A stretch of DNA of 64,000 nt, from the sequence record PP129558; one strand, given 5' to 3'. A model generated the notes under the pieces. It worked only from the letters and a program-made list of their open reading frames with translations, searched no databases and was not told the DNA's origin. The position numbers were made by a program, and so were the translations under genes. Positions 3,922 through 53,844 of the stretch are shown in pieces (positions within the stretch are counted from its first letter, which is position 1; every line of letters begins with the position of its first letter). The DNA is from Escherichia phage vB_EcoM_01.

Positions 3922-4019
3922 AAGGAGGAAGATTATGGCTACTTTTCAACAACTGAAAGATGTTTCACGTTTAGTAAGAAAAATCCGAGAAGCAGACGCT
4001 GCTGCTGTCTCTTATACAN

Positions 4020-4609
4020 NNNNNNNNNNNNNNNNNNNNNNNNNNNNNNNNNNNNNNNNNNNNNNNNNNNNNNNNNNNNNNNNNNNNNNNNNNNNNNNNN
4101 NNNNNNNNNNNNNNNNNNNNNNNNNNNNNNNNNNNNNNNNNNNNNNNNNNNNNNNNNNNNNNNNNNNNNNNNNNNNNNNNNNNNNNNNNNNNNNNNNNNN
4201 NNNNNNNNNNNNNNNNNNNNNNNNNNNNNNNNNNNNNNNNNNNNNNNNNNNNNNNNNNNNNNNNNNNNNNNNNNNNNNNNNNNNNNNNNNNNNNNNNNNN
4301 NNNNNNNNNNNNNNNNNNNNNNNNNNNNNNNNNNNNNNNNNNNNNNNNNNNNNNNNNNNNNNNNNNNNNNNNNNNNNNNNNNNNNNNNNNNNNNNNNNNN
4401 NNNNNNNNNNNNNNNNNNNNNNNNNNNNNNNNNNNNNNNNNNNNNNNNNNNNNNNNNNNNNNNNNNNNNNNNNNNNNNNNNNNNNNNNNNNNNNNNNNNN
4501 NNNNNNNNNNNNNNNNNNNNNNNNNNNNNNNNNNNNNNNNNNNNNNNNNNNNNNNNNNNNNNNNNNNNNNNNNNNNNNNNNNNNNNNNNNNNNNNNNNNN
4601 NNNNNNNNN
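4020..4609. other. Assembly gap (N run) with duplicated flanks and adapter remnants
   Basis: 3856-4006 repeats at 4630-4780; CTGTCTCTTATACA at 4007-4018 and ACACCACGTCTG at 4610-4621. Confidence 0.8.
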
Positions 4610-17207: not shown

Positions 17208-17438
17208 GTGTTAAATAAAATCGAAGAAGGTTGTATGGCATTTTTGGTAGATAACCCGTTTCCCTTTATGGTTAAGGTCCATGTAGGAGAGTATTTAGGT
17301 TATGACGAATGGGATTGTAGTATCAATAGTGAAATGCACCACTACCAACCAACAATACTTAAGACGGATCAAATGGCGCGTATTACAGTAGAGGATGAAT
17401 TGATCATTGAGTTATACGAGAGAGCACTACACAAGTAA
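17208..17438 (+). CDS. Hypothetical protein
   Basis: ORF after AGGAGG. Confidence 0.4.
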   Translation: MLNKIEEGCMAFLVDNPFPFMVKVHVGEYLGYDEWDCSINSEMHHYQPTILKTDQMARITVEDELIIELYERALHK

Positions 17439-17480
17439 GCTAGAACCCACCTAAATCGAACAGAGACGCTCTAAAATAGA

Positions 17481-17509
17481 AAAGGCACCCACTTGGGTGC
17501 CTTTGTTTT
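17481..17509. terminator. Terminator-like hairpin at strand switch (GGCACCC-ACTT-GGGTGCC + T-rich)
   Basis: Between convergent genes. Confidence 0.5.
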
Positions 17510-17780
17510 ATTCTTCGTTAGATTGCGTTTCAGAGGCGTTAAATTCGGTTTCAGTACAGCTTGCTAGGTAACTTATGTTTTGCATCACTACAACTACAGG
17601 TGTTTGAAGTTTATCTTCTAGCCCAGCAGCCACTTGAGCCAAGGCGTTATCAATATTTGATTTCCTAACGCCTGTTCCATGCCCTGTTGCCAAGTAAAGA
17701 TTACCTTCCCCTTTTTGTGTAGCATTGGCAAAGTAGTAAACGTAATGTGCAAGGTAGTAATCACGGATTTCTTCAGTCAT
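17508..17780 (-). CDS. Hypothetical protein
   Basis: ORF with AGGAGA RBS. Confidence 0.4.
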   Translation of the reverse strand: MTEEIRDYYLAHYVYYFANATQKGEGNLYLATGHGTGVRKSNIDNALAQVAAGLEDKLQTPVVVVMQNISYLASCTETEFNASETQSNEE

Positions 17781-17798
17781 TTTATTCTCCTAATAAGA

Positions 17799-17816
17799 AA
17801 GGGGCCGAAGCCCCTT
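17799..17816 (-). promoter_or_regulatory. Intercistronic GGGGCTTCGGCCCC hairpin (UUCG tetraloop), copy 1 of 3
   Basis: Identical 14-nt hairpin also at 29844-29857 and 36012-36025. Confidence 0.5.
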
Positions 17817-17823
17817 GAGTGGT

Positions 17824-18624
17824 TTATTTGTTTAAGTGGTCTTCGACCATTTTAATGAAACCTTCATTGCTGAAGGCTGTTGCAGCTTTTTCTCGGTAAA
17901 CAAAAACTCCACGATCTTCATAGAGAAGTGTTTCTTCGTAATTAACTCCAGGGTTAACTACAACCATTTTTGTTCCGATGTTAAGAGCAGGAAAAAGCTC
18001 CCAGTTAAAATTGATAACTTGATTAGAGCAACCCACTACAATCACCATATCTTGAGCCGTCAAGCCGTCTAAGATGTGGTACATATCGTTATACAATGGG
18101 GCAGTCTCCCCAAAGAACACTACATTGGGCTTCACATACTTGTAATCATCTACATCGATAGCAGCATAGCCAACATCTTTGATGATTCTATTGTCTACGA
18201 TCACTTCAGGCAGGAAGCCGTGAACATGTAGAACATCTTCATGAACAACACCTGCTTGTTCCAGAAGATCATCTACGTTTGTCGTGATGTTGATAACACG
18301 ATCACAGCCGTACTCTTGGAACCACTCTGCGATCTGGTAATGCGCAGCGTTAGGAGACACACTATCCATCTCTACGCGACGTTTATTGTAGAAGTCATGA
18401 GTTTTACGGTAGAGGTTGTATCCCTCTGCATCTAATCCACCAACAGCGCCAGGAACACACTGTTCTTGCTGGTAGCCAGCACGGAAATTGAAAATATCGC
18501 ACACTTCAGAAAGGTCGTATTCATCCCACAAAGCTTTCCCACTATCTGTATCAGTGCGGAAAGTACGTACACCGCTATCGGCGCTTAGACCCGCGCCGCT
18601 GATCACTATTAATCGTCTTGGCAT
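17824..18624 (-). CDS. Sir2-family (sirtuin-like) NAD-binding protein without visible zinc-ribbon module
   Basis: ISGAGLSADSGVRTFR, TNVDDL, HG, VVFFGE, VVGCS motifs; GAGGAGG RBS. Confidence 0.7.
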   Translation of the reverse strand: MPRRLIVISGAGLSADSGVRTFRTDTDSGKALWDEYDLSEVCDIFNFRAGYQQEQCVPGAVGGLDAEGYNLYRKTHDFYNKRRVEMDSVSPNAAHYQIAEWFQEYGCDRVINITTNVDDLLEQAGVVHEDVLHVHGFLPEVIVDNRIIKDVGYAAIDVDDYKYVKPNVVFFGETAPLYNDMYHILDGLTAQDMVIVVGCSNQVINFNWELFPALNIGTKMVVVNPGVNYEETLLYEDRGVFVYREKAATAFSNEGFIKMVEDHLNK

Positions 18625-19112
18625 TCTTCCTCCTCATAATCATCATAATCTTCGTCATCCAAATCGTACACTTCGTCTTGAGAATAACTCACTTCAAAGT
18701 AAATATCAAACTCCGCAAACAAACGTAGAATGTTGGACATGCTGTAATAATTATCGTAGGCAGATTCAGCTTCATAGTAAACATAAAGCAAATGGTTAGC
18801 CTTATCATCTTCCAAATATTTCCCGTCTGCATACGCATAGTCTGCATATGCTTTACCTGCATCTTCCACAAGAGAACGATCAAGCAGAGTAGGAAATGGT
18901 TTCTCTTTTTCTTTTAGTTTGCTCACCAACCAGTGTGCAATATCATGCCAATCTGCATCCTCTCCGCTGAAGCAGCTTGCGACTTCGCCAAACTTGGCAT
19001 CTCCTAAGTCTCCGCTAATAGTGATCATGGTTGAACTATTGTAACCACAAGTCTCGCAATTTGAACAACTGTTGTGCACATGAATTTCTACTTGAAACAT
19101 ATTTCCTCCCAT
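18609..19112 (-). CDS. Hypothetical highly acidic protein, start-overlapped with Sir2-like gene
   Basis: D/E/Y-rich C-terminus; 16-nt overlap with downstream gene. Confidence 0.4.
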   Translation of the reverse strand: MGGNMFQVEIHVHNSCSNCETCGYNSSTMITISGDLGDAKFGEVASCFSGEDADWHDIAHWLVSKLKEKEKPFPTLLDRSLVEDAGKAYADYAYADGKYLEDDKANHLLYVYYEAESAYDNYYSMSNILRLFAEFDIYFEVSYSQDEVYDLDDEDYDDYEEEECQDD

Positions 19113-19114
19113 AA

Positions 19115-19145
19115 AAGAAAAGCCCCCTGAAACAGGAGGCTTTGT
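19115..19145 (-). terminator. Terminator-like hairpin on minus strand
   Basis: GCCTCCTG-TTTC-AGGGGGC + T-rich on minus strand. Confidence 0.45.
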
Positions 19146-19158
19146 TCAGATATCGGCA

Positions 19159-19771
19159 CTATACCAGACTTTCAAGGTATTTGTCAAGGGCTTCTTGATC
19201 ACCTTGACAAACATAGCAACGGAAGTCTTGAGCCGAAGGTTGTTTATTTTCATCCCAGTCCCAATAAACATTACCCTTATAACGTGAACCAGGAAACTCA
19301 AAAGAGGCTGTATGTGTAATGTATCCTGGGCCACCAGTGAAATCACAGAATGAGAATTGAGGATATGCCGCCTTTACTGCCTCAATAAACCAAGCTTTAC
19401 GATCTAAGGCTTCATTGATGCTATATGCATGTCTCTCCATTTCTTCCCAAGTTTTCCAGACACTTCTCTCATCAGGAGAAAAGACAAGCNATTCNGGANG
19501 NGNANNNAGNNGACTCCTCCAGTTTTGAGTAATCAAAAGCAGAATATACCCACCAACCATCCTCCAGTAAGGCTTTGATAGGGACGAAGCCTTTATCAGC
19601 ATATTGATCGAATTGTTTGACACGGTGGCTTGTGCAGTCTTCAAACTCACATTCTAAACGATATGCACCTTTTCGACGAGCCTCAAGACCGTGTGTACTG
19701 AAAATAACAACACTTCCTTCACCATCATTACGATCTACTTGATAAGCAACTACTGGTTTTGAATTTGACAT
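19159..19771 (-). CDS. Hypothetical protein (ORF interrupted by ambiguous bases at 19490-19512)
   Basis: Two table ORFs in same frame across N-containing stretch. Confidence 0.4.
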
Positions 19772-20454
19772 TATTTCTCCTTATCTAGAAGATTGTTAGA
19801 CAAAAACACGGCACGAGCAAAACCACGTGCGGTTAGGGATCTAAGTTGTTTTGTTTTTGCACTAGCTCCACCTAAGCTTTTCCAACCCCAGAAGCAGCCT
19901 ATATGATCTACTGGTTTCTTCACTGGTTGAACAAAACCATTGCCGTGCCAAATACAAGTTTTCTTTGTATACCCATCACGGGTAGGCATTTTAGGATGAA
20001 AGCTTCCTTCCTCTTCAAACAAATACTCACCATACTCATAAGGATCAAAGTAAAAATCGGGTTTACGCCATAAGGTTGAAAGTTTACCTACTGGGTTCTC
20101 AATCATCCAAGGAACATTATATTTGTTACCCAAAGCTTCCACTACACGAATATTAGCTAAAGCTTCATCCAATTCCTCTGTGCTGCGTTCGTGTTTGCTA
20201 CCACTACCTGCTAACATAGTGCAAGGTGGAAATCCAAAAATAATATCGGGTTTAGGTATCCCATGATCTTCAGGGTTGAATGTAGAATCTATCCAGGCAT
20301 TCACATAGGTTATGTTTGGGTGCTCCATCCTAACCTCGTATTTACCGTGATCCCCTTCATCAGCGTTTACACAAAAACACTTGTGACCTGCTTCGGCATA
20401 ACGTAACACCATGATCCCAGATCCGTCAAACATAGACAAAACTGTTTTACTCAT
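19771..20454 (-). CDS. Short DNA (cytosine-5)-methyltransferase-like protein
   Basis: FDGSG (motif I-like), GFPPC (motif IV-like), ENP (motif VI-like). Confidence 0.45.
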   Translation of the reverse strand: MSKTVLSMFDGSGIMVLRYAEAGHKCFCVNADEGDHGKYEVRMEHPNITYVNAWIDSTFNPEDHGIPKPDIIFGFPPCTMLAGSGSKHERSTEELDEALANIRVVEALGNKYNVPWMIENPVGKLSTLWRKPDFYFDPYEYGEYLFEEEGSFHPKMPTRDGYTKKTCIWHGNGFVQPVKKPVDHIGCFWGWKSLGGASAKTKQLRSLTARGFARAVFLSNNLLDKEK

Positions 20455-20860
20455 TACCCCTCCATTCAAGACAAGCCATAACTTTACGCCAATCACTTTC
20501 TGTAAGAAAAATCTCGTTTGCTTTCTTCCACAAATCTAAATCGTGAAGGGTTGGAATACGATATGTTAGTTCACAGAATCTATGCTCTGCTTCTGTAATA
20601 TAACCAAAATGCAGAGCCACATCGTGAAACCAACACCAACCATGCATCTCTCGAACAACATGGTCATGTTGAGACATTATTTTATGCCGTAAACCTAACC
20701 AACAAGGAACAGATACTTTAGTAGTCTTTAATCTGTGTTCAACAGTATTAGAGTATTCAATAATAGCTGTCAGTTTCAATCGTGCTTTTTCTAAATCCTC
20801 ATGCGTCACTTTGAAATAACTTTCTGAAAGATATCCACACATATTAATAACCTCCTTCAA
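20447..20860 (-). CDS. Hypothetical protein
   Basis: ORF. Confidence 0.4.
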   Translation of the reverse strand: MKEVINMCGYLSESYFKVTHEDLEKARLKLTAIIEYSNTVEHRLKTTKVSVPCWLGLRHKIMSQHDHVVREMHGWCWFHDVALHFGYITEAEHRFCELTYRIPTLHDLDLWKKANEIFLTESDWRKVMACLEWRGNE

Positions 20861-21785
20861 AAGGCTTTACTACATGTTGATTAGCTTTAAAACGTTCAAC
20901 ATAGTCGTTTTCGCCCATGTTTTCATATAGCTTAATAACAACATAAAAGTTTTCCCAAGCATATTCCCTAAACCAACCACTAGTGATGGATGTGCAGACT
21001 TTAGATAAAGCCATTATAAAACTTTGCTTAGGGGTTGGACCTCCGATCTCTTCACCGAAAGGAATTTGTGAACGTTCCAAAGCCAAAACACACGCTTCTT
21101 CATAAACACCTAACAGCCGCACATGTTTTGGTTGAGCAAAAAACTTTTCTTTGCTGGTCATAACTTCACTTCCATCTTTCATATAAGATTTATATGCTGG
21201 AGCATCCATTAACGCGATTGCTTCATGGATAGAATCATGATCATAAACATACGGAACCTCGTCACCTTTAAAGAACTCTTTACTTTTTACGTTTAAGTTC
21301 GGATGAGAGTAAGTGTATGTTTCTCTCTCACGCAACTCATAAATACTCTTAAGATTTTCTGGGATCTTTGCGCCCAGTGACCGCATGAAATGAATATCTT
21401 TCATAGTTTTAAAGAAGTGAGGACTATCCTTTTTAAAACGATGACTCATTTTAAGAAGGTAGAGCACATCTAAAGGAGCAACAACATGTCCAGCGTAAGT
21501 TCGACGAACATCATCAGAATCTTCACAATAACTAATCAAAGCTTCTGTGCTATCTCCTTGAGAAGCAATATCGTATTCCAAATGTGCACCAGCTATCATT
21601 TTGACATGGCCTTTGTTCCCTTTACGTTCTACAAGTTCAACAAACTCGTCTTGAGAGAACATTTTTGATAATTCTTCCCACTCTTGTTCTGTACACAGGT
21701 AATCTAAATCTACACAAGGGCGATACAAGTCTTTTCCCATGCCCATAGCATGAATTTGTAATGCACGGCTACCAATTAACACCAT
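20844..21785 (-). CDS. Hypothetical protein with N-terminal GS...DxD motif (possible nucleotidyltransferase fold)
   Basis: LIGSRA ... CVDLD near N-terminus; weak. Confidence 0.35.
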   Translation of the reverse strand: MVLIGSRALQIHAMGMGKDLYRPCVDLDYLCTEQEWEELSKMFSQDEFVELVERKGNKGHVKMIAGAHLEYDIASQGDSTEALISYCEDSDDVRRTYAGHVVAPLDVLYLLKMSHRFKKDSPHFFKTMKDIHFMRSLGAKIPENLKSIYELRERETYTYSHPNLNVKSKEFFKGDEVPYVYDHDSIHEAIALMDAPAYKSYMKDGSEVMTSKEKFFAQPKHVRLLGVYEEACVLALERSQIPFGEEIGGPTPKQSFIMALSKVCTSITSGWFREYAWENFYVVIKLYENMGENDYVERFKANQHVVKPFEGGY

Positions 21786-21845
21786 AATATTTCTCCTCTA
21801 TTGGTTGATAGGTTAAGTTTATCAAGCTTCCAGATTCCTGTCAAT

Positions 21846-21866
21846 AAAAAACCCGCCGAAGCGGGT
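21846..21866 (-). terminator. Rho-independent terminator on minus strand (CCCGC-TTCG-GCGGG + T6)
   Basis: Same stem as the plus-strand terminator at 17161. Confidence 0.6.
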
Positions 21867-21875
21867 TATTATTTA

Positions 21876-36123: not shown

Positions 36124-36975
36124 NNNNNNNNNNNNNNNNNNNNNNNNNNNNNNNNNNNNNNNNNNNNNNNNNNNNNNNNNNNNNNNNNNNNNNNNNNNNN
36201 NNNNNNNNNNNNNNNNNNNNNNNNNNNNNNNNNNNNNNNNNNNNNNNNNNNNNNNNNNNNNNNNNNNNNNNNNNNNNNNNNNNNNNNNNNNNNNNNNNNN
36301 NNNNNNNNNNNNNNNNNNNNNNNNNNNNNNNNNNNNNNNNNNNNNNNNNNNNNNNNNNNNNNNNNNNNNNNNNNNNNNNNNNNNNNNNNNNNNNNNNNNN
36401 NNNNNNNNNNNNNNNNNNNNNNNNNNNNNNNNNNNNNNNNNNNNNNNNNNNNNNNNNNNNNNNNNNNNNNNNNNNNNNNNNNNNNNNNNNNNNNNNNNNN
36501 NNNNNNNNNNNNNNNNNNNNNNNNNNNNNNNNNNNNNNNNNNNNNNNNNNNNNNNNNNNNNNNNNNNNNNNNNNNNNNNNNNNNNNNNNNNNNNNNNNNN
36601 NNNNNNNNNNNNNNNNNNNNNNNNNNNNNNNNNNNNNNNNNNNNNNNNNNNNNNNNNNNNNNNNNNNNNNNNNNNNNNNNNNNNNNNNNNNNNNNNNNNN
36701 NNNNNNNNNNNNNNNNNNNNNNNNNNNNNNNNNNNNNNNNNNNNNNNNNNNNNNNNNNNNNNNNNNNNNNNNNNNNNNNNNNNNNNNNNNNNNNNNNNNN
36801 NNNNNNNNNNNNNNNNNNNNNNNNNNNNNNNNNNNNNNNNNNNNNNNNNNNNNNNNNNNNNNNNNNNNNNNNNNNNNNNNNNNNNNNNNNNNNNNNNNNN
36901 NNNNNNNNNNNNNNNNNNNNNNNNNNNNNNNNNNNNNNNNNNNNNNNNNNNNNNNNNNNNNNNNNNNNNNNNNNN
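36124..36975. other. Assembly gap (N run) flanked by 148-bp exact duplication
   Basis: 35976-36123 equals 36976-37123. Confidence 0.8.
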
Positions 36976-46461: not shown

Positions 46462-47190
46462 TTATTTCTTAGCAATGATTTTTGCAATATCAGGTTTAAC
46501 AAAGGTAGAAGGCTTCATGATCTTACCTTTATCATCAAAGAACACATACACTTTCTGTTTTTCATTATAAACAGCATGAACACCAGTGTATGCCCCTTCT
46601 GGACGATTGGCATTTCGTTCTTCAATTGCAGCGCATTCTTGTGCAATGGCTGAATCGATATCCGAAGTTTTCCAAGTTTTCAGCAACTGTTGTTTAGTTG
46701 GATACTTGGAATCATTACTTTTCAATACCTCTTTAATAACTTTCTTTTCTGGATATTTTGAACGGATTAGAGTGTCACGAGACATACGCATAATACCAGC
46801 AGCCATTAGTGCCATTTGAACTGGCTCTGTAAATGTTTGTTCCAAAGCATCAAAATCAGTATACACAGTTGGAGTAAAAACATCGCCTACAACATAGTCC
46901 AAGAAATTCATCGTATGTTCTTCACCAAAGAACATGTAAGTAAGATAACTGGATACTACAAAAATATCCGCTGCTGCATCCAAGAGTTCTACATGATCGT
47001 TTACTTTCGCGGCTGTTTCATACTCTTTAAGCTCTTCACGAACGAACCCGATTTGGGACATAAATAGCTCTTGAGTGAATTCAGGTTGTTCACCACCTCG
47101 TGCTTTGGCATTCCAATCAATTACGTGCTTTGCTGCATTTTTGAAAAATTCAGTATCGAATTTAATATCTTTAAAAAAATTCTCGATCAT
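46462..47190 (-). CDS. MazG-like nucleoside triphosphate pyrophosphohydrolase (tentative)
   Basis: REELKEYETA (EExxE) and ELLDAAADI (ExxD) motifs. Confidence 0.45.
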   Translation of the reverse strand: MIENFFKDIKFDTEFFKNAAKHVIDWNAKARGGEQPEFTQELFMSQIGFVREELKEYETAAKVNDHVELLDAAADIFVVSSYLTYMFFGEEHTMNFLDYVVGDVFTPTVYTDFDALEQTFTEPVQMALMAAGIMRMSRDTLIRSKYPEKKVIKEVLKSNDSKYPTKQQLLKTWKTSDIDSAIAQECAAIEERNANRPEGAYTGVHAVYNEKQKVYVFFDDKGKIMKPSTFVKPDIAKIIAKK

Positions 47191-47199
47191 TATAACTCC

Positions 47200-47382
47200 T
47201 TATTTAAAATAGCTTTCTAGAAAGTTGCTAATATTTACTACAGACTCACCCATGTAAATCCCTGCGAAACCGAAAACAAGCATACGTGGAATATTGAAAT
47301 ACCATTTATCTGCCGGAAAAGATGCCAGAATTACGATAGCAATTGCTATCAACATCATAAGAATTGTTGCTAAAATTATCAT
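47200..47382 (-). CDS. Small hydrophobic membrane protein (lies in duplicated segment)
   Basis: MIILATILMMLIAIAIVILA; GGAGG RBS. Confidence 0.35.
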   Translation of the reverse strand: MIILATILMMLIAIAIVILASFPADKWYFNIPRMLVFGFAGIYMGESVVNISNFLESYFK

Positions 47383-47622
47383 AAAAATGCCTCCAGGTAT
47401 TTTGCACAATGATAAGCTAAGAACATTTTTCCTCCTTATTCTGCTGGTTCCCAAGTGCCTGGGATCATTTCTCGAATACGATAGCAATTGCTATCAACAT
47501 CATAAGAATTGTTGCTAAAATTATCATAAAAATGCCTCCAGGTATTTTGCACAATGATAAGCTAAGAACATTTTTCCTCCTTATTCTGCTGGTTCCCAAG
47601 TGCCTGGGATCATTTCTCGAAT
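47339..47622. repeat. Exact tandem duplication of ~142 bp (probable assembly artifact)
   Basis: 47339-47480 identical to 47481-47622, includes 3' end of ligase gene. Confidence 0.7.
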
Positions 47623-48708
47623 ACGAACACCAACAGGTTTTGTTGGAATACCTTCATCTGAAAATTCTTCATACTCTATTTCAACGAACTGATTAATCAA
47701 GGTAGAAGCATTCTCTGCTTTACGATAATTGATAGTCTCATGAGCATCTTTACGCATTAAGAATTCGACTACTTTACCATTTTCCATCTCACCTGTCAAC
47801 ACTCCATCACCATTTTTATCACTTTTTGAATTTGTTACTTTAACTTCAAGGGTGTGGCGAGGCTTACGTTTAATAACGTCATAAGAACGTTTATCAAATT
47901 CGTAAACTCCGTGAGCATTACGATATACTACACCTTCAGCTTTCTCAAGTAAAGCTTTTTCATAGAAAGCATCAAACTGTTCTTGGTTTTCAATATACTC
48001 TGTATGAACTACGCAAATAAGCTCGTCAAGACCATAATCTTCAACTACTGCCTTAAGAGCAGCAAGAACATCAACACGTTTTTCAAACGGTAGATCTGGA
48101 ACTGGAATATCGTATACGTAATAATTCAGCAAAGGTGTATTTGCATTATGCTTCTTCCAGGCACTGTTAATTTGTTGCAGACTAAGGACACCTAACCCAG
48201 CAAACACTTCACCATCAAGAGGATGACCAACAACTTCACTAATAAAGTTTGGAATACCTTTCCAATGAGGTGGCAGGTTATACACTTCTCCAGCTTTTGA
48301 TAAACACTCCCCTTTCATGTTAATCATAGAACGTAACCCGTTCAGTTTGTATTGTGCATAACCAGGGAACACAACCCTTTCAGGATAATCTTTATAATCC
48401 TGGCATTTCATTGGTGTGGAAGGAACATGGTTTTCAGCTTCTTCTTTTGTTTTATAATAGCCATTCTTTAACTGTTTTGTCCATTTGGCAAAAGCTTCAA
48501 GTTCAGCTTGTTCTTCTGGTGTTGTTTCATTGGAACGACCGATGTTTTTTGCTTCTGCTGTATAAGATTTTTCTGTGATTTTTCCACCTACCCTTCCATG
48601 AGCTACAGTAACAACTGCACCATCTGTATACACTGTCCACTGTTTAAGTTTTCCTTTTGAATCTTTACCATACAGCGTTTGATTTGTTTGTTGCATTAGT
48701 CCTCCCAT
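47581..48708 (-). CDS. ATP-dependent DNA ligase
   Basis: KLNGLR adenylation motif, DGEVF, 375 aa. Confidence 0.6.
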   Translation of the reverse strand: MGGLMQQTNQTLYGKDSKGKLKQWTVYTDGAVVTVAHGRVGGKITEKSYTAEAKNIGRSNETTPEEQAELEAFAKWTKQLKNGYYKTKEEAENHVPSTPMKCQDYKDYPERVVFPGYAQYKLNGLRSMINMKGECLSKAGEVYNLPPHWKGIPNFISEVVGHPLDGEVFAGLGVLSLQQINSAWKKHNANTPLLNYYVYDIPVPDLPFEKRVDVLAALKAVVEDYGLDELICVVHTEYIENQEQFDAFYEKALLEKAEGVVYRNAHGVYEFDKRSYDVIKRKPRHTLEVKVTNSKSDKNGDGVLTGEMENGKVVEFLMRKDAHETINYRKAENASTLINQFVEIEYEEFSDEGIPTKPVGVRIREMIPGTWEPAE

Positions 48709-48917
48709 TTAAAAACTGAAATTTTCAATCTGTTACACACTTCATCCAAATCTGCGTCGAGTAACGTTGTAGATGTTGCCAACATATAATCAATGCTTGT
48801 GAAACCTTGCCCTTTGGCATAGTCAAGCATATCTTCATACATATCTTCAAGATCACCGTCATCAAAAGTAGCTAGAAAATCCTCGTCCCCACTACGAACA
48901 TAAAATGCAGTACTCAT
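48696..48917 (-). CDS. Hypothetical acidic protein
   Basis: ORF. Confidence 0.35.
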   Translation of the reverse strand: MSTAFYVRSGDEDFLATFDDGDLEDMYEDMLDYAKGQGFTSIDYMLATSTTLLDADLDEVCNRLKISVFKWED

Positions 48918-49102
48918 TCATCTTCATCCCAAGATTCAAAAACGCAGCAATCATCGGTTTCTATAATACCAACACGTCCGCAGGTATTGCAAGTGATTTT
49001 ATCACCGTAGAATAAATAATTTTTATCACCCTCTGTGTTTACAGTTATGTCATTACTACCACAAGGGCAAGTCAGCCAACCAACAACGATATCTTTTTTC
49101 AT
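48914..49102 (-). CDS. Small zinc-ribbon protein
   Basis: CPCG ... CNTCG. Confidence 0.4.
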   Translation of the reverse strand: MKKDIVVGWLTCPCGSNDITVNTEGDKNYLFYGDKITCNTCGRVGIIETDDCCVFESWDEDE

Positions 49103-49111
49103 AATCCCTCC

Positions 49112-49438
49112 TTAAGCGTTCAGTTCGTTGTTGAGTTCGTAAATCTCTTCTTGAAGAGCATCAATCTCTTCCTCCAAACGGGAGATCTCTTCTTTTAGAT
49201 ATACCATTTCTGATTCTTTCTCTTCTAATTCATTTTCAAATTTTACTTTATTCGCCTCATTTTCATAATGCAGTTCAGCGTAATCATCACGCATTTGTTC
49301 AATAAGATGAATCAGAGATAAGATATAGTTATCCCCAGTTTCATCTCGCCACTCTTCCCCGTGGCGCAAGATTGTGATTCGTCCAGTATCTTCATCTAAA
49401 ATTGTCTCATATTTACGATCATCTGTATAAATCTGCAT
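49112..49438 (-). CDS. Hypothetical coiled-coil protein
   Basis: Heptad-rich E/L C-terminus. Confidence 0.4.
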   Translation of the reverse strand: MQIYTDDRKYETILDEDTGRITILRHGEEWRDETGDNYILSLIHLIEQMRDDYAELHYENEANKVKFENELEEKESEMVYLKEEISRLEEEIDALQEEIYELNNELNA

Positions 49439-49447
49439 TATTTCTCC

Positions 49448-49852
49448 TTATTGAAGTTTAAGTGAACCACGAAGACGCTTCTCTTGCTGATCACGAATAT
49501 ATTGTGGAACCTCGTGAATTGAATCATTACCGTGCCTATTTTCAACAACTAAAGAGATAACTTGATAACCAAACTCTTCAGCAAGAGTTAGATAAGGTTT
49601 AAGTTCTTTCTCTGTGGTTGAAGTGTTAGAAACAATAATCTTGTTAAGATTAGATGCCATAGCATCACGAACAATACTCTGACACCATGCGTGTGCTTTA
49701 CCTACATTTTCTGGCTTCCAATCGTAAACACCACTTTCTGTGTAATGATATTGATCTGCCTCACAGATAGGCCAATAACCTTCAGAAATAATTTCTGCTA
49801 CTGTAGATTTACCAGCACCTGAAACGCCACGTAAAATGATAAGTTGTTTCAT
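49448..49852 (-). CDS. Polynucleotide 5'-kinase (T4 Pnk kinase-domain-like P-loop kinase)
   Basis: Walker A GVSGAGKST at N-terminus, ~134 aa, adjacent to ligase. Confidence 0.6.
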   Translation of the reverse strand: MKQLIILRGVSGAGKSTVAEIISEGYWPICEADQYHYTESGVYDWKPENVGKAHAWCQSIVRDAMASNLNKIIVSNTSTTEKELKPYLTLAEEFGYQVISLVVENRHGNDSIHEVPQYIRDQQEKRLRGSLKLQ

Positions 49853-50785
49853 TTATCCTCCAAAGAAGTTTTCGATTTTTTCACGTCGCTCTTGCTGATT
49901 TAAAGCAGCCCATTGAGTCTTCGTAAAATTATTTCGAATCCATTCTAACAAAGCGTAATATTCTTCGTCAACAATTTGTTTGGCATTTTTTGGATTATCC
50001 CAAATCAGATCCCACTTTTTATCTCCACCGCGCATAAGAAACTTCTTAGTAAGATAGTGTGGTGATTTAATTTTTAAAAGTAAGTTGAACGGATAGTTTG
50101 TTTCACGAACTACAAACCCTTCGTGTTTACAATGCTTAGACATTTCAACAACATCTGAAAACTTAACCATTGGATGAACTTCAGGACGCTTAAATTTGGT
50201 GACAGAAGCAATCCCATCAAGAGCACCTTCAGGTAACATAAAACTTGTCCCATCAGGATTTTGAATTCTGGCACCAATTAAGTATGCACCTGGTTCTTCT
50301 TCGACAATATGTGGATCAGAAGGATCACAGATTTCAAAAAGGAAAGTTGCTTTTGCACTCTCTGTCCATTTGATGAAATGTTCTATGTCATCACACTCTG
50401 AAACAATACGATTCTTTGCAATACTTGCAAAATCTGATTCAAGGCTTCCTGTTGTCGATACAATAAGCTGACCTTTATATACACCTACAGAGGCCATAAA
50501 ACCATTTACTTTACGAACCACATCTACAAATTCATCCGCTGGTAGATCTGTGCCATTCTCAAAACGATTAAAAATCTTAGTGAAAGGCCAAATAACAACA
50601 TTGTCATCAGCGTCAACAACGATTCCGCGACATTCTAGAAGACGAGAATCAATGTTCCACAGGTTATCCCAGAAAACTTTGTTCTTATACTTAAGAACAG
50701 ATAGACCAGAATACTCTCCTTCTTTATATGTTTTCTTATGAACTAAACCTTTTTCAACCAAATCGTCGCAATTAAATTTAGTCAC
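49853..50785 (-). CDS. Nucleotidyltransferase-type ligase, probable RNA ligase
   Basis: KVNGFM (KxNG), EGFVVRE, LLKIKS motifs; RNA assignment from operon context. Confidence 0.5.
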   Translation of the reverse strand: MTKFNCDDLVEKGLVHKKTYKEGEYSGLSVLKYKNKVFWDNLWNIDSRLLECRGIVVDADDNVVIWPFTKIFNRFENGTDLPADEFVDVVRKVNGFMASVGVYKGQLIVSTTGSLESDFASIAKNRIVSECDDIEHFIKWTESAKATFLFEICDPSDPHIVEEEPGAYLIGARIQNPDGTSFMLPEGALDGIASVTKFKRPEVHPMVKFSDVVEMSKHCKHEGFVVRETNYPFNLLLKIKSPHYLTKKFLMRGGDKKWDLIWDNPKNAKQIVDEEYYALLEWIRNNFTKTQWAALNQQERREKIENFFGG

Positions 50786-50786
50786 A

Positions 50787-51338
50787 TTACTCTCCTTTGA
50801 TTATTTTGTGATGGTCTACAGTTACGATATCTCGTTTACTCATCATAGAAATTATCTCATCAAAATGTAAGATTTTTCCATGTGCATCCCAACCCACATC
50901 TAACATTTTACCATAAGCTTCATCAGGGAAAGATCCGTGGGAATGCCCATGTAGCATGATTGATCCACGACCTTGTTTATTCCAGGAGGCCATAGGGTAA
51001 TGGCTTAAGACGAAGAACAGCTTCTGATATTTCACTTCGTCATAATACACCACTTCTCCATACTCTGCAAGCACTTCTCGGTGTTTGCTGTAATCATGGT
51101 TCCCAACACAATAAGTGATATCCCCTTGGAGGCGGGAAGCAATCTTACGGGTATCTTCTTCAGTCCCGAAACAGAAGTCACCCAAATGCCACATCTTGAC
51201 ACCTGGACTCGTAGCGCATTTATTCCATGCTTCGATCAGTGCTTCTGTCATGTGGTCCATATCTTCCCACGGTCGATATTCAGGAGCAAACTCTCGTATA
51301 CGTTTGTGCATAAAATGCAAATCACTTGTAATAAACAT
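50787..51338 (-). CDS. Calcineurin-like metallophosphoesterase (candidate 2',3'-phosphatase of repair cassette)
   Basis: SDLHFMH, GDFCFG, GNHD, HGHSH motifs. Confidence 0.6.
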   Translation of the reverse strand: MFITSDLHFMHKRIREFAPEYRPWEDMDHMTEALIEAWNKCATSPGVKMWHLGDFCFGTEEDTRKIASRLQGDITYCVGNHDYSKHREVLAEYGEVVYYDEVKYQKLFFVLSHYPMASWNKQGRGSIMLHGHSHGSFPDEAYGKMLDVGWDAHGKILHFDEIISMMSKRDIVTVDHHKIIKGE

Positions 51339-51694
51339 TAGTATAATCCCTCGCTAAATAGGTCACGATCATGACCATTACGTTCGTAGTCAATCTGGTC
51401 TGCGTGTTTTGCAATAATGTATGCATCTTCACGACTCCACCAATTGTAGTATTGATCAATAAAACCTTGATTGTTTGGAAGACAATGCACTTTATCAAGC
51501 ACACCTGCTTCTTTCAATACATTCAATTGTGCTGATAATACAGGATTTGCATGTCGAACACAAGGAATAATTAACTCTTCACCATTATTCAAAATATATT
51601 TATTCGCAGCACAGACGATAACACGTTGCGCATAATGACCCTCACCAATCCAGGTAAGAGGTTGGTAACAAATGTTCTGATCAATACTACTCAT
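51338..51694 (-). CDS. Hypothetical protein
   Basis: ORF. Confidence 0.4.
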   Translation of the reverse strand: MSSIDQNICYQPLTWIGEGHYAQRVIVCAANKYILNNGEELIIPCVRHANPVLSAQLNVLKEAGVLDKVHCLPNNQGFIDQYYNWWSREDAYIIAKHADQIDYERNGHDRDLFSEGLY

Positions 51695-51912
51695 TAAGTT
51701 TCTCCTTAATAGTGAACACGAATCATTTTAATACCATAACGCAGCATGGATTCTTTTGCAAGCATATAACACGTTGCGCATAATGACCCTCACCAATCCA
51801 GGTAAGAGGTTGGTAACAAATGTTCTGATCAATACTACTCATTAAGTTTCTCCTTAATAGTGAACACGAATCATTTTAATACCATAACGCAGCATGGATT
51901 CTTTTGCAAGCA
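51619..51912. repeat. Exact tandem duplication of ~147 bp (probable assembly artifact)
   Basis: 51619-51765 identical to 51766-51912. Confidence 0.7.
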
Positions 51913-52210
51913 TGAATTTATCCCCAGCGGCGGGGTTAGAAGTATGCACGAAAATGGTAGGTGAACCAAAGCAAGGTTTACCAAACGCCAGAAGTTCTTC
52001 CAGGTACAGGAAAACATCATACCCATCTTGGTCTGACTCCATACCCAAATCGTTGTCAAAATGCCACTCGTCTACAAAACGATAACCCTTCTGCACCTCA
52101 TTCATGTAACGAGAGGCAAGAAGTTCCTGTGAGGTTTTAAACCAGATTGCATCTGGACAACCATAATCTTTTGGATCACGTAAATCATCAAGCCAAATAA
52201 TAGTACCCAT
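51854..52210 (-). CDS. Hypothetical protein with N-terminal IIWLDDxRDP motif
   Basis: ORF. Confidence 0.4.
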   Translation of the reverse strand: MGTIIWLDDLRDPKDYGCPDAIWFKTSQELLASRYMNEVQKGYRFVDEWHFDNDLGMESDQDGYDVFLYLEELLAFGKPCFGSPTIFVHTSNPAAGDKFMLAKESMLRYGIKMIRVHY

Positions 52211-53463: not shown

Positions 53464-53844
53464 TCCATATTCNGTCTCTTATNNNNNNNNNNNNNNNNNN
53501 NNNNNNNNNNNNNNNNNNNNNNNNNNNNNNNNNNNNNNNNNNNNNNNNNNNNNNNNNNNNNNNNNNNNNNNNNNNNNNNNNNNNNNNNNNNNNNNNNNNN
53601 NNNNNNNNNNNNNNNNNNNNNNNNNNNNNNNNNNNNNNNNNNNNNNNNNNNNNNNNNNNNNNNNNNNNNNNNNNNNNNNNNNNNNNNNNNNNNNNNNNNN
53701 NNNNNNNNNNNNNNNNNNNNNNNNNNNNNNNNNNNNNNNNNNNNNNNNNNNNNNNNNNNNNNNNNNNNNNNNNNNNNNNNNNNNNNNNNNNNNNNNNNNN
53801 NNNNNNNNNNNNNNNNNNNNNNNNNNNNNNNNNNNNNNNNNNNN
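53464..53844. other. Assembly gap (N run) with duplicated flanks
   Basis: 53322-53463 repeats at 53860-54002; AGAGACAG adapter remnant at 53845-53852. Confidence 0.8.

Follow-up and report, generated by a model that had tools for sequence, protein, structure and literature searches.

A sirtuin of the phage Sir2 clade with a cysteine-less zinc ribbon and a candidate deacylase function in Escherichia phage vB_EcoM_01

Organization of the locus

We analyzed a 64,000-nucleotide stretch of Escherichia phage vB_EcoM_01 (PP129558), hereinafter the window, with respect to a gene for a 266-residue Sir2-family protein (Sir2) and the open reading frame (ORF) for a very acidic protein that overlaps it (Table 1). 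The two genes lie on the minus strand, which makes the acidic ORF the upstream gene and Sir2 the downstream one; an earlier sequence-only reading had given the overlap correctly as 16 nucleotides but had the order reversed, with the acidic ORF as the downstream gene. At the junction (...GAT TAT GAG GAG GAA GAA TGC CAA GAC GAT TAA) the ATG of Sir2 is embedded in the codons for E159 and C160 of the acidic protein (GAA TGC), and the junction also supplies a Shine-Dalgarno sequence from within the Glu codons of the acidic tail. Of the two starts listed for the acidic ORF, translation probably begins at the ATG at 19100, right after GGAGGAAAT. Overlaps occur at 35 of the 68 same-strand junctions in the homologous gene block of phage phAPEC8, with at least 16 nucleotides at 8 of them; the overlap between Sir2 and the acidic ORF is of this ordinary kind and comes from dense gene packing rather than from a dedicated two-component system. 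Both ORFs are real genes under purifying selection, which is strong in the case of Sir2: the ratio of nonsynonymous to synonymous substitution rates (dN/dS) is 0.06-0.12 in Sir2 and, in the acidic ORF, 0.13-0.23, at dS values close to saturation.

The locus is 99.5% identical to that of Escherichia phage phAPEC8 (Phapecoctavirus, Stephanstirmvirinae), where gp197 is annotated as 'Sir2 (NAD-dependent deacetylase)' and gp196, the acidic protein, as hypothetical. Other parts of the window are nearer to other phapecoctaviruses (~98% to ASO2A and ZCKP1), and the window carries the RNA ligase RnlA and a kinase; for these reasons it represents a mosaic Phapecoctavirus rather than phAPEC8 itself. Sir2 matches PHROG 2162 (E-value 8e-102) and the acidic protein matches PHROG 9509 (E-value 6e-63). 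An Rfam scan of positions 17300-19400 gave no RNA element above threshold.

Table 1. Features of the sirtuin locus and of the RNA-repair cassette (window positions; Sir2 residues paired with CobB residues at the end)
Feature	Position	Strand	Remarks
Sir2-family gene	17824..18624	-	266 aa; CobB/SIRT5-like canonical sirtuin of the phage clade
Acidic ORF	18609..19100 (163 aa, from ATG 19100) or from 19112 (167 aa)	-	PHROG 9509
Catalytic His135 codon (HG motif)	18220..18222	-	opposite CobB H147; His in 144/144 aligned representatives
YxxR pocket codons, Y79-N-K-R82-R83	18377..18390	-	motif common to CobB and SIRT5
Cysteine-less zinc-ribbon remnant	18127..18216	-	residues 137-166 (FLPEVIVDNRIIKDVGYAAIDVDDYKYVKP)
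Shine-Dalgarno sequence of Sir2 (GAGGAGG)	18629..18635	-	within Glu codons of the acidic tail; read from the junction
Terminator-like hairpin	17799..17816	-	directly after the Sir2 stop codon
Terminator-like hairpin with U-tract	19119..19143	-	11-bp stem; between promoter and acidic ORF
Sigma-70-like promoter	19158..19187	-	TTGACA-18-TATAGT, extended TG; 11/12 consensus matches; overlaps the end of the gp195-like gene
C5-methyltransferase-like gene	19771..20496	-
Gene for 313-aa protein	20844..21785	-	DUF7277 and DUF7275; PHROG 2141
Promoter-like site and terminator	21816..21867
RNA-repair cassette	46462..52210	-	from tblastn with reference proteins, the ORF list and annotations of matching phages
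cREC	52210-51854	-	followed by a 118-aa ORF
Metallophosphoesterase	51338-50787	-
RNA ligase 1	50785-49853	-
P-loop kinase	49852-49448	-
Three small, very acidic ORFs	49438-48696	-	at the place that Sir2 has in Vequintavirinae
ATP-dependent DNA ligase	48708-47581	-
MazG	47190-46462	-
Sir2 residue C42			opposite CobB A76 (PDB sequence alignment)
Sir2 residue Y79			opposite CobB Y92 (PDB sequence alignment)
Sir2 residue R82			opposite CobB R95 (PDB sequence alignment)
Sir2 residue V117			opposite CobB I131 (PDB sequence alignment)
Sir2 residue H135			opposite CobB H147 (PDB sequence alignment)
Sir2 residue V168			opposite CobB V187 (PDB sequence alignment)

A canonical sirtuin with a conserved active site

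Family assignment, fold and active-site residues agree in placing Sir2 among the canonical sirtuins. The Pfam SIR2 model (PF02146) matches it with 72.4 bits against a cutoff of 24 (E-value 5.9e-20) and is the sole Pfam family listed for it at E-values up to 1, with no listing of SIR2_2 (PF13289). Sequence searches of the PDB recover E. coli CobB (1s5p) as the best match (E-value 1.3e-15), followed by human SIRT5 and then archaeal Af-Sir2, all of them deacylases and all ahead of SIRT2 and SIRT3. An AlphaFold2 (AF2) model of the protein, with a pLDDT score of 81.5 and a predicted template-modeling (pTM) score of 0.81, has a six-stranded Rossmann sheet. In Foldseek comparisons its best match is CobB 1s5p, with an E-value of 5e-14 and a target-normalized TM-score of 0.80, and the 50 best PDB fold matches are deacylase sirtuins in every case. 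We found all the motifs listed in the sequence-only reading, namely GAGLSADSGVRTFR at residues 10-23, TNVDDL at 115-120, HG at 135-136, VVFFGE at 168-173 and VVGCS at 196-200. That reading had also considered that the protein might turn out to belong to another Rossmann family or to lack the catalytic His; it is a PF02146 protein, with H135 opposite CobB H147.

Besides H135, the loop from G10 to R23 (GAGxS...GIxxFR) and the N116/D118 pair align with the corresponding residues of CobB. We verified the CobB numbering against the titles of the PDB entries 6rxm and 6rxs, according to which the engineered variants Ac2 and Ac3 carry mutations at A76, Y92, I131 and V187; the Sir2 residues at these positions are listed in Table 1. 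Given that Y79 and R82 align with CobB Y92 and R95, Sir2 keeps the YxxR motif of the CobB/SIRT5 type. CobB A76, opposite C42, is presumably the counterpart of SIRT5 Ala86. Among 144 aligned representatives of clusters formed at 50% identity, H135 and N116 are invariant, while G10 and G12 are kept in 143, F171 in 142, D118 in 140, Y79 in 136 and R82 in 106; the active-site residues are also kept across the phage lineages. As judged from these alignments, the residues for sirtuin chemistry are intact and conserved, and Sir2 is almost certainly an active canonical sirtuin belonging to a phage clade.

Degeneration of the zinc ribbon

The sequence-only reading had the zinc module as lacking. This stands for the Cys ligands, none of which is left, but not for the module, which is kept as a remnant of 31 residues (137-167, from HG to KPN) with no cysteine. 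An exhaustive HMMER search recovered 1,682 Sir2 relatives at E-values up to 1e-3, and in many of those at 40-50% identity the equivalent segment contains an intact CxxC...CxxC. Sir2 and its Cys4 relatives have in common an (I/V)GY in the middle of this segment and a KPN at its end, as seen when one such relative (P0157, FLPEIYCNNCQKIYNIGYEKF...KCTHCGSTFSKPN) is set against Sir2 (FLPEVIVDNRIIKDVGYAAIDVDDYKYVKPN). Among the 144 representatives, the segment has at least four cysteines in 82 and none in 40, with median lengths of 37 and 34 residues, respectively. In the AF2 model it forms a short beta-hairpin (pLDDT 56-78). Because a segment of similar length with the (I/V)GY and KPN elements aligns with intact Cys4 ribbons, the ribbon of Sir2 is best regarded as degenerate rather than deleted, with only the zinc ligands gone. 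In a neighbor-joining tree the sequences without zinc ligands group into what is essentially a single block, which includes the query as well as five added phage proteins from T5-like phages, Mydovirus, Erwinia phage KEY, Justusliebigvirus and a Pectobacterium phage. It had previously been noted, by sequence analysis only, that the Sir2/CobB proteins of KVP40, phiSt2 and phiGrn1 no longer have a zinc site in their 'finger' domain (Skliros et al., 2016; PMC5107563).

The acidic protein and its co-transcription with Sir2

With an isoelectric point of 4.05 and a net charge of -30, the acidic protein is, as the sequence-only reading had it, highly acidic; among the 97 window ORFs of at least 80 residues it is the most acidic. 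Its final 23 residues alone have a net charge of -15. The predicted fold has no meaningful PDB match and ends in a disordered poly-Asp/Glu/Tyr tail. A profile search assigned only 26 protein clusters to the family. Within the protein, S-x-CETCG, GDLG and C43 are conserved and C160 is near-invariant. The near-invariance of C160 is due to the overlap of its codon with the Sir2 ATG, and the residue is missing in nepoznato, where a different gene follows the acidic ORF. We had considered that the acidic protein might supply a zinc site in trans through CETCG, C43 and C160; this idea was dropped as unsupported, with C160 accounted for by the Sir2 ATG.

The two genes appear to be transcribed together from their own sigma-70-like promoter, upstream of the acidic ORF, and the pair is flanked by terminator-like hairpins (Table 1). 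The same layout recurs in Nernie and FKP3. In Nernie, the promoter at the equivalent place has 12 of 12 consensus matches and an equivalent hairpin follows Sir2 (L003 4300-4317); the -10 element is kept in four genomes from two genera. The hairpin before the acidic ORF retains its pairing in Nernie and FKP3 even though the stem and loop sequences differ. As predicted from these elements, the promoter and flanking hairpins would favor co-expression of the acidic ORF and Sir2, in keeping with the sequence-only reading. The promoter overlaps the last codons and the stop of the gp195-like gene and is followed within ~15 nucleotides by the terminator-like hairpin. This is an unusual order, with a counterpart in Nernie (L003 2855-2920). 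The hairpin 3' of the promoter could serve as a terminator of upstream transcription, as an attenuator or as a stabilizer of the mRNA 5' end.

Despite this arrangement, the proposal that the acidic ORF is a regulatory partner of Sir2 fares poorly. The family is restricted to Stephanstirmvirinae and was found in 128 phage records as against 978 for Sir2. It also diverges much faster: between genera, the acidic ORF has ~38% identity and Sir2 71%. At one locus with a 70%-identical Sir2 (L016), the gp195 homolog abuts Sir2 and there is no acidic ORF. In two further phages the pair is split, by a 246-residue hypothetical ORF in nepoznato (L005 3477-4217) and by an HNH endonuclease gene in FKP3 (L004 3480-4130), which suggests that the junction is a hotspot for the insertion of mobile genes. 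The acidic ORF thus appears to be a Stephanstirmvirinae-specific neighbor that is co-transcribed with Sir2, not a conserved partner; a regulatory role of its product on Sir2 is possible but speculative.

Phyletic spread of the phage sirtuins

In tblastn searches, relatives of Sir2 were found in the 978 phage records mentioned above, which include Stephanstirmvirinae, Vequintavirinae, T5-like Demerecviridae, Sugarland-type Klebsiella phages, KVP40-like vibriophages and jumbo phages. The 'distinct clade' of phage sirtuins defined by Iyer, Burroughs, Anantharaman and Aravind (Iyer et al., 2022; PMC9503650) has those of Serratia phage BF, V5, Mydo and SP15 as exemplars; in our searches Sir2 has 39% identity to the protein of Serratia phage BF (E-value 5e-39), 53% to that of SP15, 50% to rV5-like and 58% to Mydovirus proteins. 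The phage Sir2 gene, its clade, the loss of zinc and an RNA-repair hypothesis are already known, and our literature searches found no biochemical or other experimental work on any member of the clade.

Certain annotations in these phages call for correction. The 'putative Sir2-like protein' of phage nomine (L007 4779-5492) directly follows the true Sir2 gene and matches phAPEC8 gp140, a nucleotide pyrophosphohydrolase, with 31% identity over 220 residues in tblastn; it looks MazG-like rather than like a sirtuin. The second 'Sir2' of SP15 (gp118), judged from position only, seems to correspond to the HAD phosphatase of Iyer et al. Some homologs have plainly wrong product names, with Sir2 given as 'tail assembly protein' and the acidic ORF as 'major head protein', and near-identical Phapecoctavirus sequences are filed as 'Campylobacter phage', 'Acinetobacter phage' and 'Pseudomonas phage'; these odd labels in public records are probably host-label or annotation errors.

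Gene neighborhoods and the case for RNA repair

From gene neighborhoods, a role in RNA repair like that of KptA/Tpt1 has been proposed for exactly the phage clade to which Sir2 belongs (Iyer et al., 2022; PMC9503650, section 3.7.3). Under this proposal, the sirtuin would remove 2'-phosphates from RNA: the 2'-phosphate would attack C1'' of NAD+, and the 2''-OH of ADP-ribose, activated by H135, would then attack the phosphate. It would complete the repair of tRNAs cut by anticodon nucleases of the host, once cREC or the phosphoesterase has healed the ends and RNA ligase 1 has sealed them. This is the principal rival to a role in protein deacylation, and we regard it as possible, though the less probable of the two. 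Chemically, the two steps of the sirtuin mechanism correspond to those of the Tpt1 reaction, and a carboxylate-binding pocket of the Tyr/Arg type could conceivably hold a phosphate.

We surveyed the neighborhoods in 57 IMG/VR loci together with annotated phages, and they fall into four contexts. First, 13 of the 57 loci, along with nomine and KpS11, confirm the RNA-repair cassette next to the sirtuin: phosphoesterase, RNA ligase 1 (RnlA), cREC, P-loop kinase, Sir2, DNA ligase and MazG, with Sir2 16-236 nucleotides past the kinase in most loci. Second, in the T5-like phages (~32 of the 57), the order is NrdD, small ORFs, Sir2, an HAD phosphatase and two more ORFs. Third, six Stephanstirmvirinae-like loci have the order gp192, gp193, C5-methyltransferase-like gene, gp195, acidic ORF, Sir2 and gp198. 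Fourth, in Serratia phage BF, genes for an NMNAT/ADP-ribose pyrophosphatase and for NAMPT lie upstream of Sir2, with a Nudix gene after it, an NAD-salvage setting that is also congenial to the RNA-repair proposal.

The association with RNA repair is real in one large lineage. The phage of the window has a complete cassette of its own, transcribed in the same direction as Sir2 (Table 1). Here, however, it amounts to co-occurrence without adjacency, because Sir2 is ~31 kb downstream of the cassette. Its neighbors are instead the C5-methyltransferase-like gene, the gp195-like gene and the acidic ORF, with no RNA-end-processing enzymes adjacent. The phAPEC8 reference is without RnlA and the kinase, apparently through a deletion of ~2.3 kb, and yet keeps the 99.5%-identical Sir2 locus. 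The absence of an RNA ligase from the window phage, which we had inferred from this reference, was rejected when RnlA and the kinase were found in the window. Also speaking against RNA repair, the T5-like loci show only NrdD and the HAD phosphatase nearby, with no RNA ligase within 6 kb of Sir2, and synteny in phages can reflect inheritance rather than function. Sir2 has a net charge of -19 as against -2 to -9 for the RNA enzymes of the cassette, which is weak evidence in the same direction. Finally, our literature searches turned up no RNA-acting sirtuin; if one were at work here, it would be without precedent among the studies these searches covered.

In the distant loci L052, L059 and L061 a methyltransferase gene (in two of them also gp195) is beside Sir2 without the acidic ORF. 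The linkage of methyltransferase and Sir2, mostly with a gp195-like gene between them, persists where Sir2 is only ~50% identical and is wider than that of the acidic ORF and Sir2. The C5-methyltransferase-like protein (227-241 residues) has FDGSG, FPPC and ENP motifs, no Pfam match and only weak similarity (E-value 0.11) to the M.HaeIII N-terminus; it appears to be without a target-recognition domain. Near its N-terminus, the 313-residue protein has a G-S...D-L-D pattern that recalls nucleotidyltransferases of the Pol-beta type, and its gene is the first after a promoter-like site and terminator (Table 1). The gp192-, gp194- and gp195-like proteins had no significant match in sequence searches of the PDB. 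The window has runs of N at 4019-4609, 36124-36975 and 53483-53844, and scattered N at 19490-19511 inside the gp195-like gene, where it is ~41 nucleotides shorter than phAPEC8.

Predicted biochemical function

Taking these lines of evidence together, we posit that Sir2 is most likely an NAD+-dependent protein deacylase, to which we assign a probability of roughly 40%. In such a reaction, NAD+ would be cleaved with release of nicotinamide, and the ADP-ribose would be transferred to an oxyanion nucleophile of the substrate held in the Tyr/Arg pocket. The oxyanion would attack C1', after which H135 would activate the ribose 2'-OH for the attack of the second step. We favor acyl-lysine as the substrate on the grounds of homology and of a pocket in which YxxR, FGE and the small residue are intact; it might be on host or phage proteins and bear an acetyl or a negatively charged succinyl or malonyl group. 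A deacylase of this kind would reset protein acylation during infection. Both deacylation and the removal of RNA 2'-phosphates are chemically compatible with the sirtuin reaction.

Several observations weigh against deacylation. A proline in the VxP substrate loop is typical of deacylases, and in Sir2 this position is an Asn and is variable across the clade. The NCBIfam CobB equivalog models are all matched far below their cutoffs (at best 97.9 bits against 243, and 80.5 against 320). The zinc module is reported to be necessary for deacetylation by canonical sirtuins (PMC12700824), and the loss of its ligands could therefore mean a changed substrate. Sir2La was considered as a precedent for a deacylase without zinc, but a preprint consulted on this point does not describe it as one. 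Moreover, Sir2 is placed between the kinase and the DNA ligase of the cassette in Vequintavirinae and Mydovirus, and the contexts in Vequintavirinae and in Serratia phage BF fit a non-protein substrate at least as well; the gene context in Vequintavirinae and jumbo phages speaks for an RNA 2'-phosphate. These points could be carried further, to the view, going back to Iyer et al. (2022), that the whole clade leaves proteins alone and uses NAD+ to remove 2'-phosphates from RNA or to ADP-ribosylate another phosphorylated end of a nucleic acid. Sir2 would then be a sirtuin-fold analog of Tpt1 that completes the repair of tRNA by the phage, and the loss of the zinc ligands and the acidic-tailed protein of Stephanstirmvirinae would be adaptations to a non-peptide substrate; we consider this less probable than not.

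The absence of zinc ligands had led the sequence-only reading to a different candidate, namely an NAD-consuming effector of the kind found in defense systems, deployed in host takeover, counter-defense or superinfection exclusion, with the acidic partner possibly restraining or targeting it. The conserved promoter and terminator-like hairpins that the acidic ORF shares with Sir2 would suit such a pair, the acidic tail could, speculatively, mimic nucleic acid or phosphate, and NAD salvage beside Sir2 in Serratia phage BF fits a heavy turnover of NAD+. However, the protein belongs to PF02146 rather than SIR2_2, the PADLOC defense models gave nothing beyond a marginal 38-residue match to PDC-S65, and the 50 best fold matches are all to deacylases. 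In sequence it groups with short sirtuins in which the Cys4 ribbon is retained. It also keeps the FGE loop and the ribbon remnant, whereas SIR2 domains of the ThsA type are without the module entirely (PMC12700824). It stands alone, with no sensor domain or partner, and neither L016 nor any phage with Sir2 outside Stephanstirmvirinae has the acidic gene. A drain on NAD+ would, furthermore, be counterproductive for a lytic phage with NAD-salvage relatives. The step from zinc loss to a defense-type NADase accordingly does not hold up well, and we judge such a role improbable.

Less likely still is an ADP-ribosyltransferase of the SirTM type that would modify a host target, be it a protein or a small molecule. 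Sirtuin chemistry permits ADP-ribosyl transfer, and most non-deacylase sirtuins have been classed as ADP-ribosyltransferases (Iyer et al., 2022; PMC9503650). As opposed to this, no gene for a Macro domain, the hallmark of SirTM, was found among the neighbors scanned with Pfam and PHROGs or is annotated at the locus, and a catalytic His with a Tyr/Arg pocket is what deacylases typically have.

Whichever substrate it acts on, this is a sirtuin that strong purifying selection maintains in about a thousand lytic phages with known sequences, among them the T5-like and rV5-like models. NAD+ is the metabolite that many bacterial defense systems deliberately deplete, and the choice of substrate, editing of the host acyl-proteome versus RNA repair, would explain why these phages spend it.

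Comparison with known systems

The SIR2 NADases of defense systems (ThsA, DSR1/2, SIR2-HerA and SPARSA; SIR2_2) share with Sir2 the use of NAD+, the catalytic His and Asn and the lack of zinc. They differ in belonging to another Pfam family, in having a seven-stranded sheet and no ribbon module (PMC12700824), and in being fused to or paired with sensor proteins, whereas Sir2 is a stand-alone domain of 266 residues; no SLOG, TIR, HerA, pAgo or C-terminal sensor domain was found in it or its neighbors. Tpt1/KptA, with its two-step NAD+-dependent ADP-ribosyl transfer, is a possible functional analog according to the hypothesis in the literature. Its fold is unrelated and there is no homology, so that the resemblance to Sir2 is chemical and contextual only.

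Among homologous proteins, the Sir2/CobB proteins of KVP40, phiSt2 and phiGrn1 have ~35% identity to Sir2 and likewise lack the zinc site (PMC5107563). Those phages carry the NAD-salvage genes for NAMPT and NMNAT, unlike the phAPEC8 genome and the window, where none was found. CobB and SIRT5, class III sirtuins with NAD+-dependent deacetylase and desuccinylase activity, share with Sir2 the GAGxS...G(I/V)xxFR loop, N-x-D, the catalytic HG, K/R-P-x-V-V-x-F-G-E and YxxR, and a small residue, C42 in Sir2, occupies the position of CobB A76. On the other hand, the identity is ~26%, and Sir2 has none of the four zinc cysteines, a ~24-residue insertion in the helical module, Asn for the VxP proline and scores far below the NCBIfam CobB cutoffs. 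The phage sirtuins of the clade described by Iyer et al. (2022) are direct homologs at 39-60% identity, and Sir2 is to be counted among them; it is set apart by its location, following the methyltransferase-like, gp195-like and acidic genes rather than lying beside genes for RNA repair.

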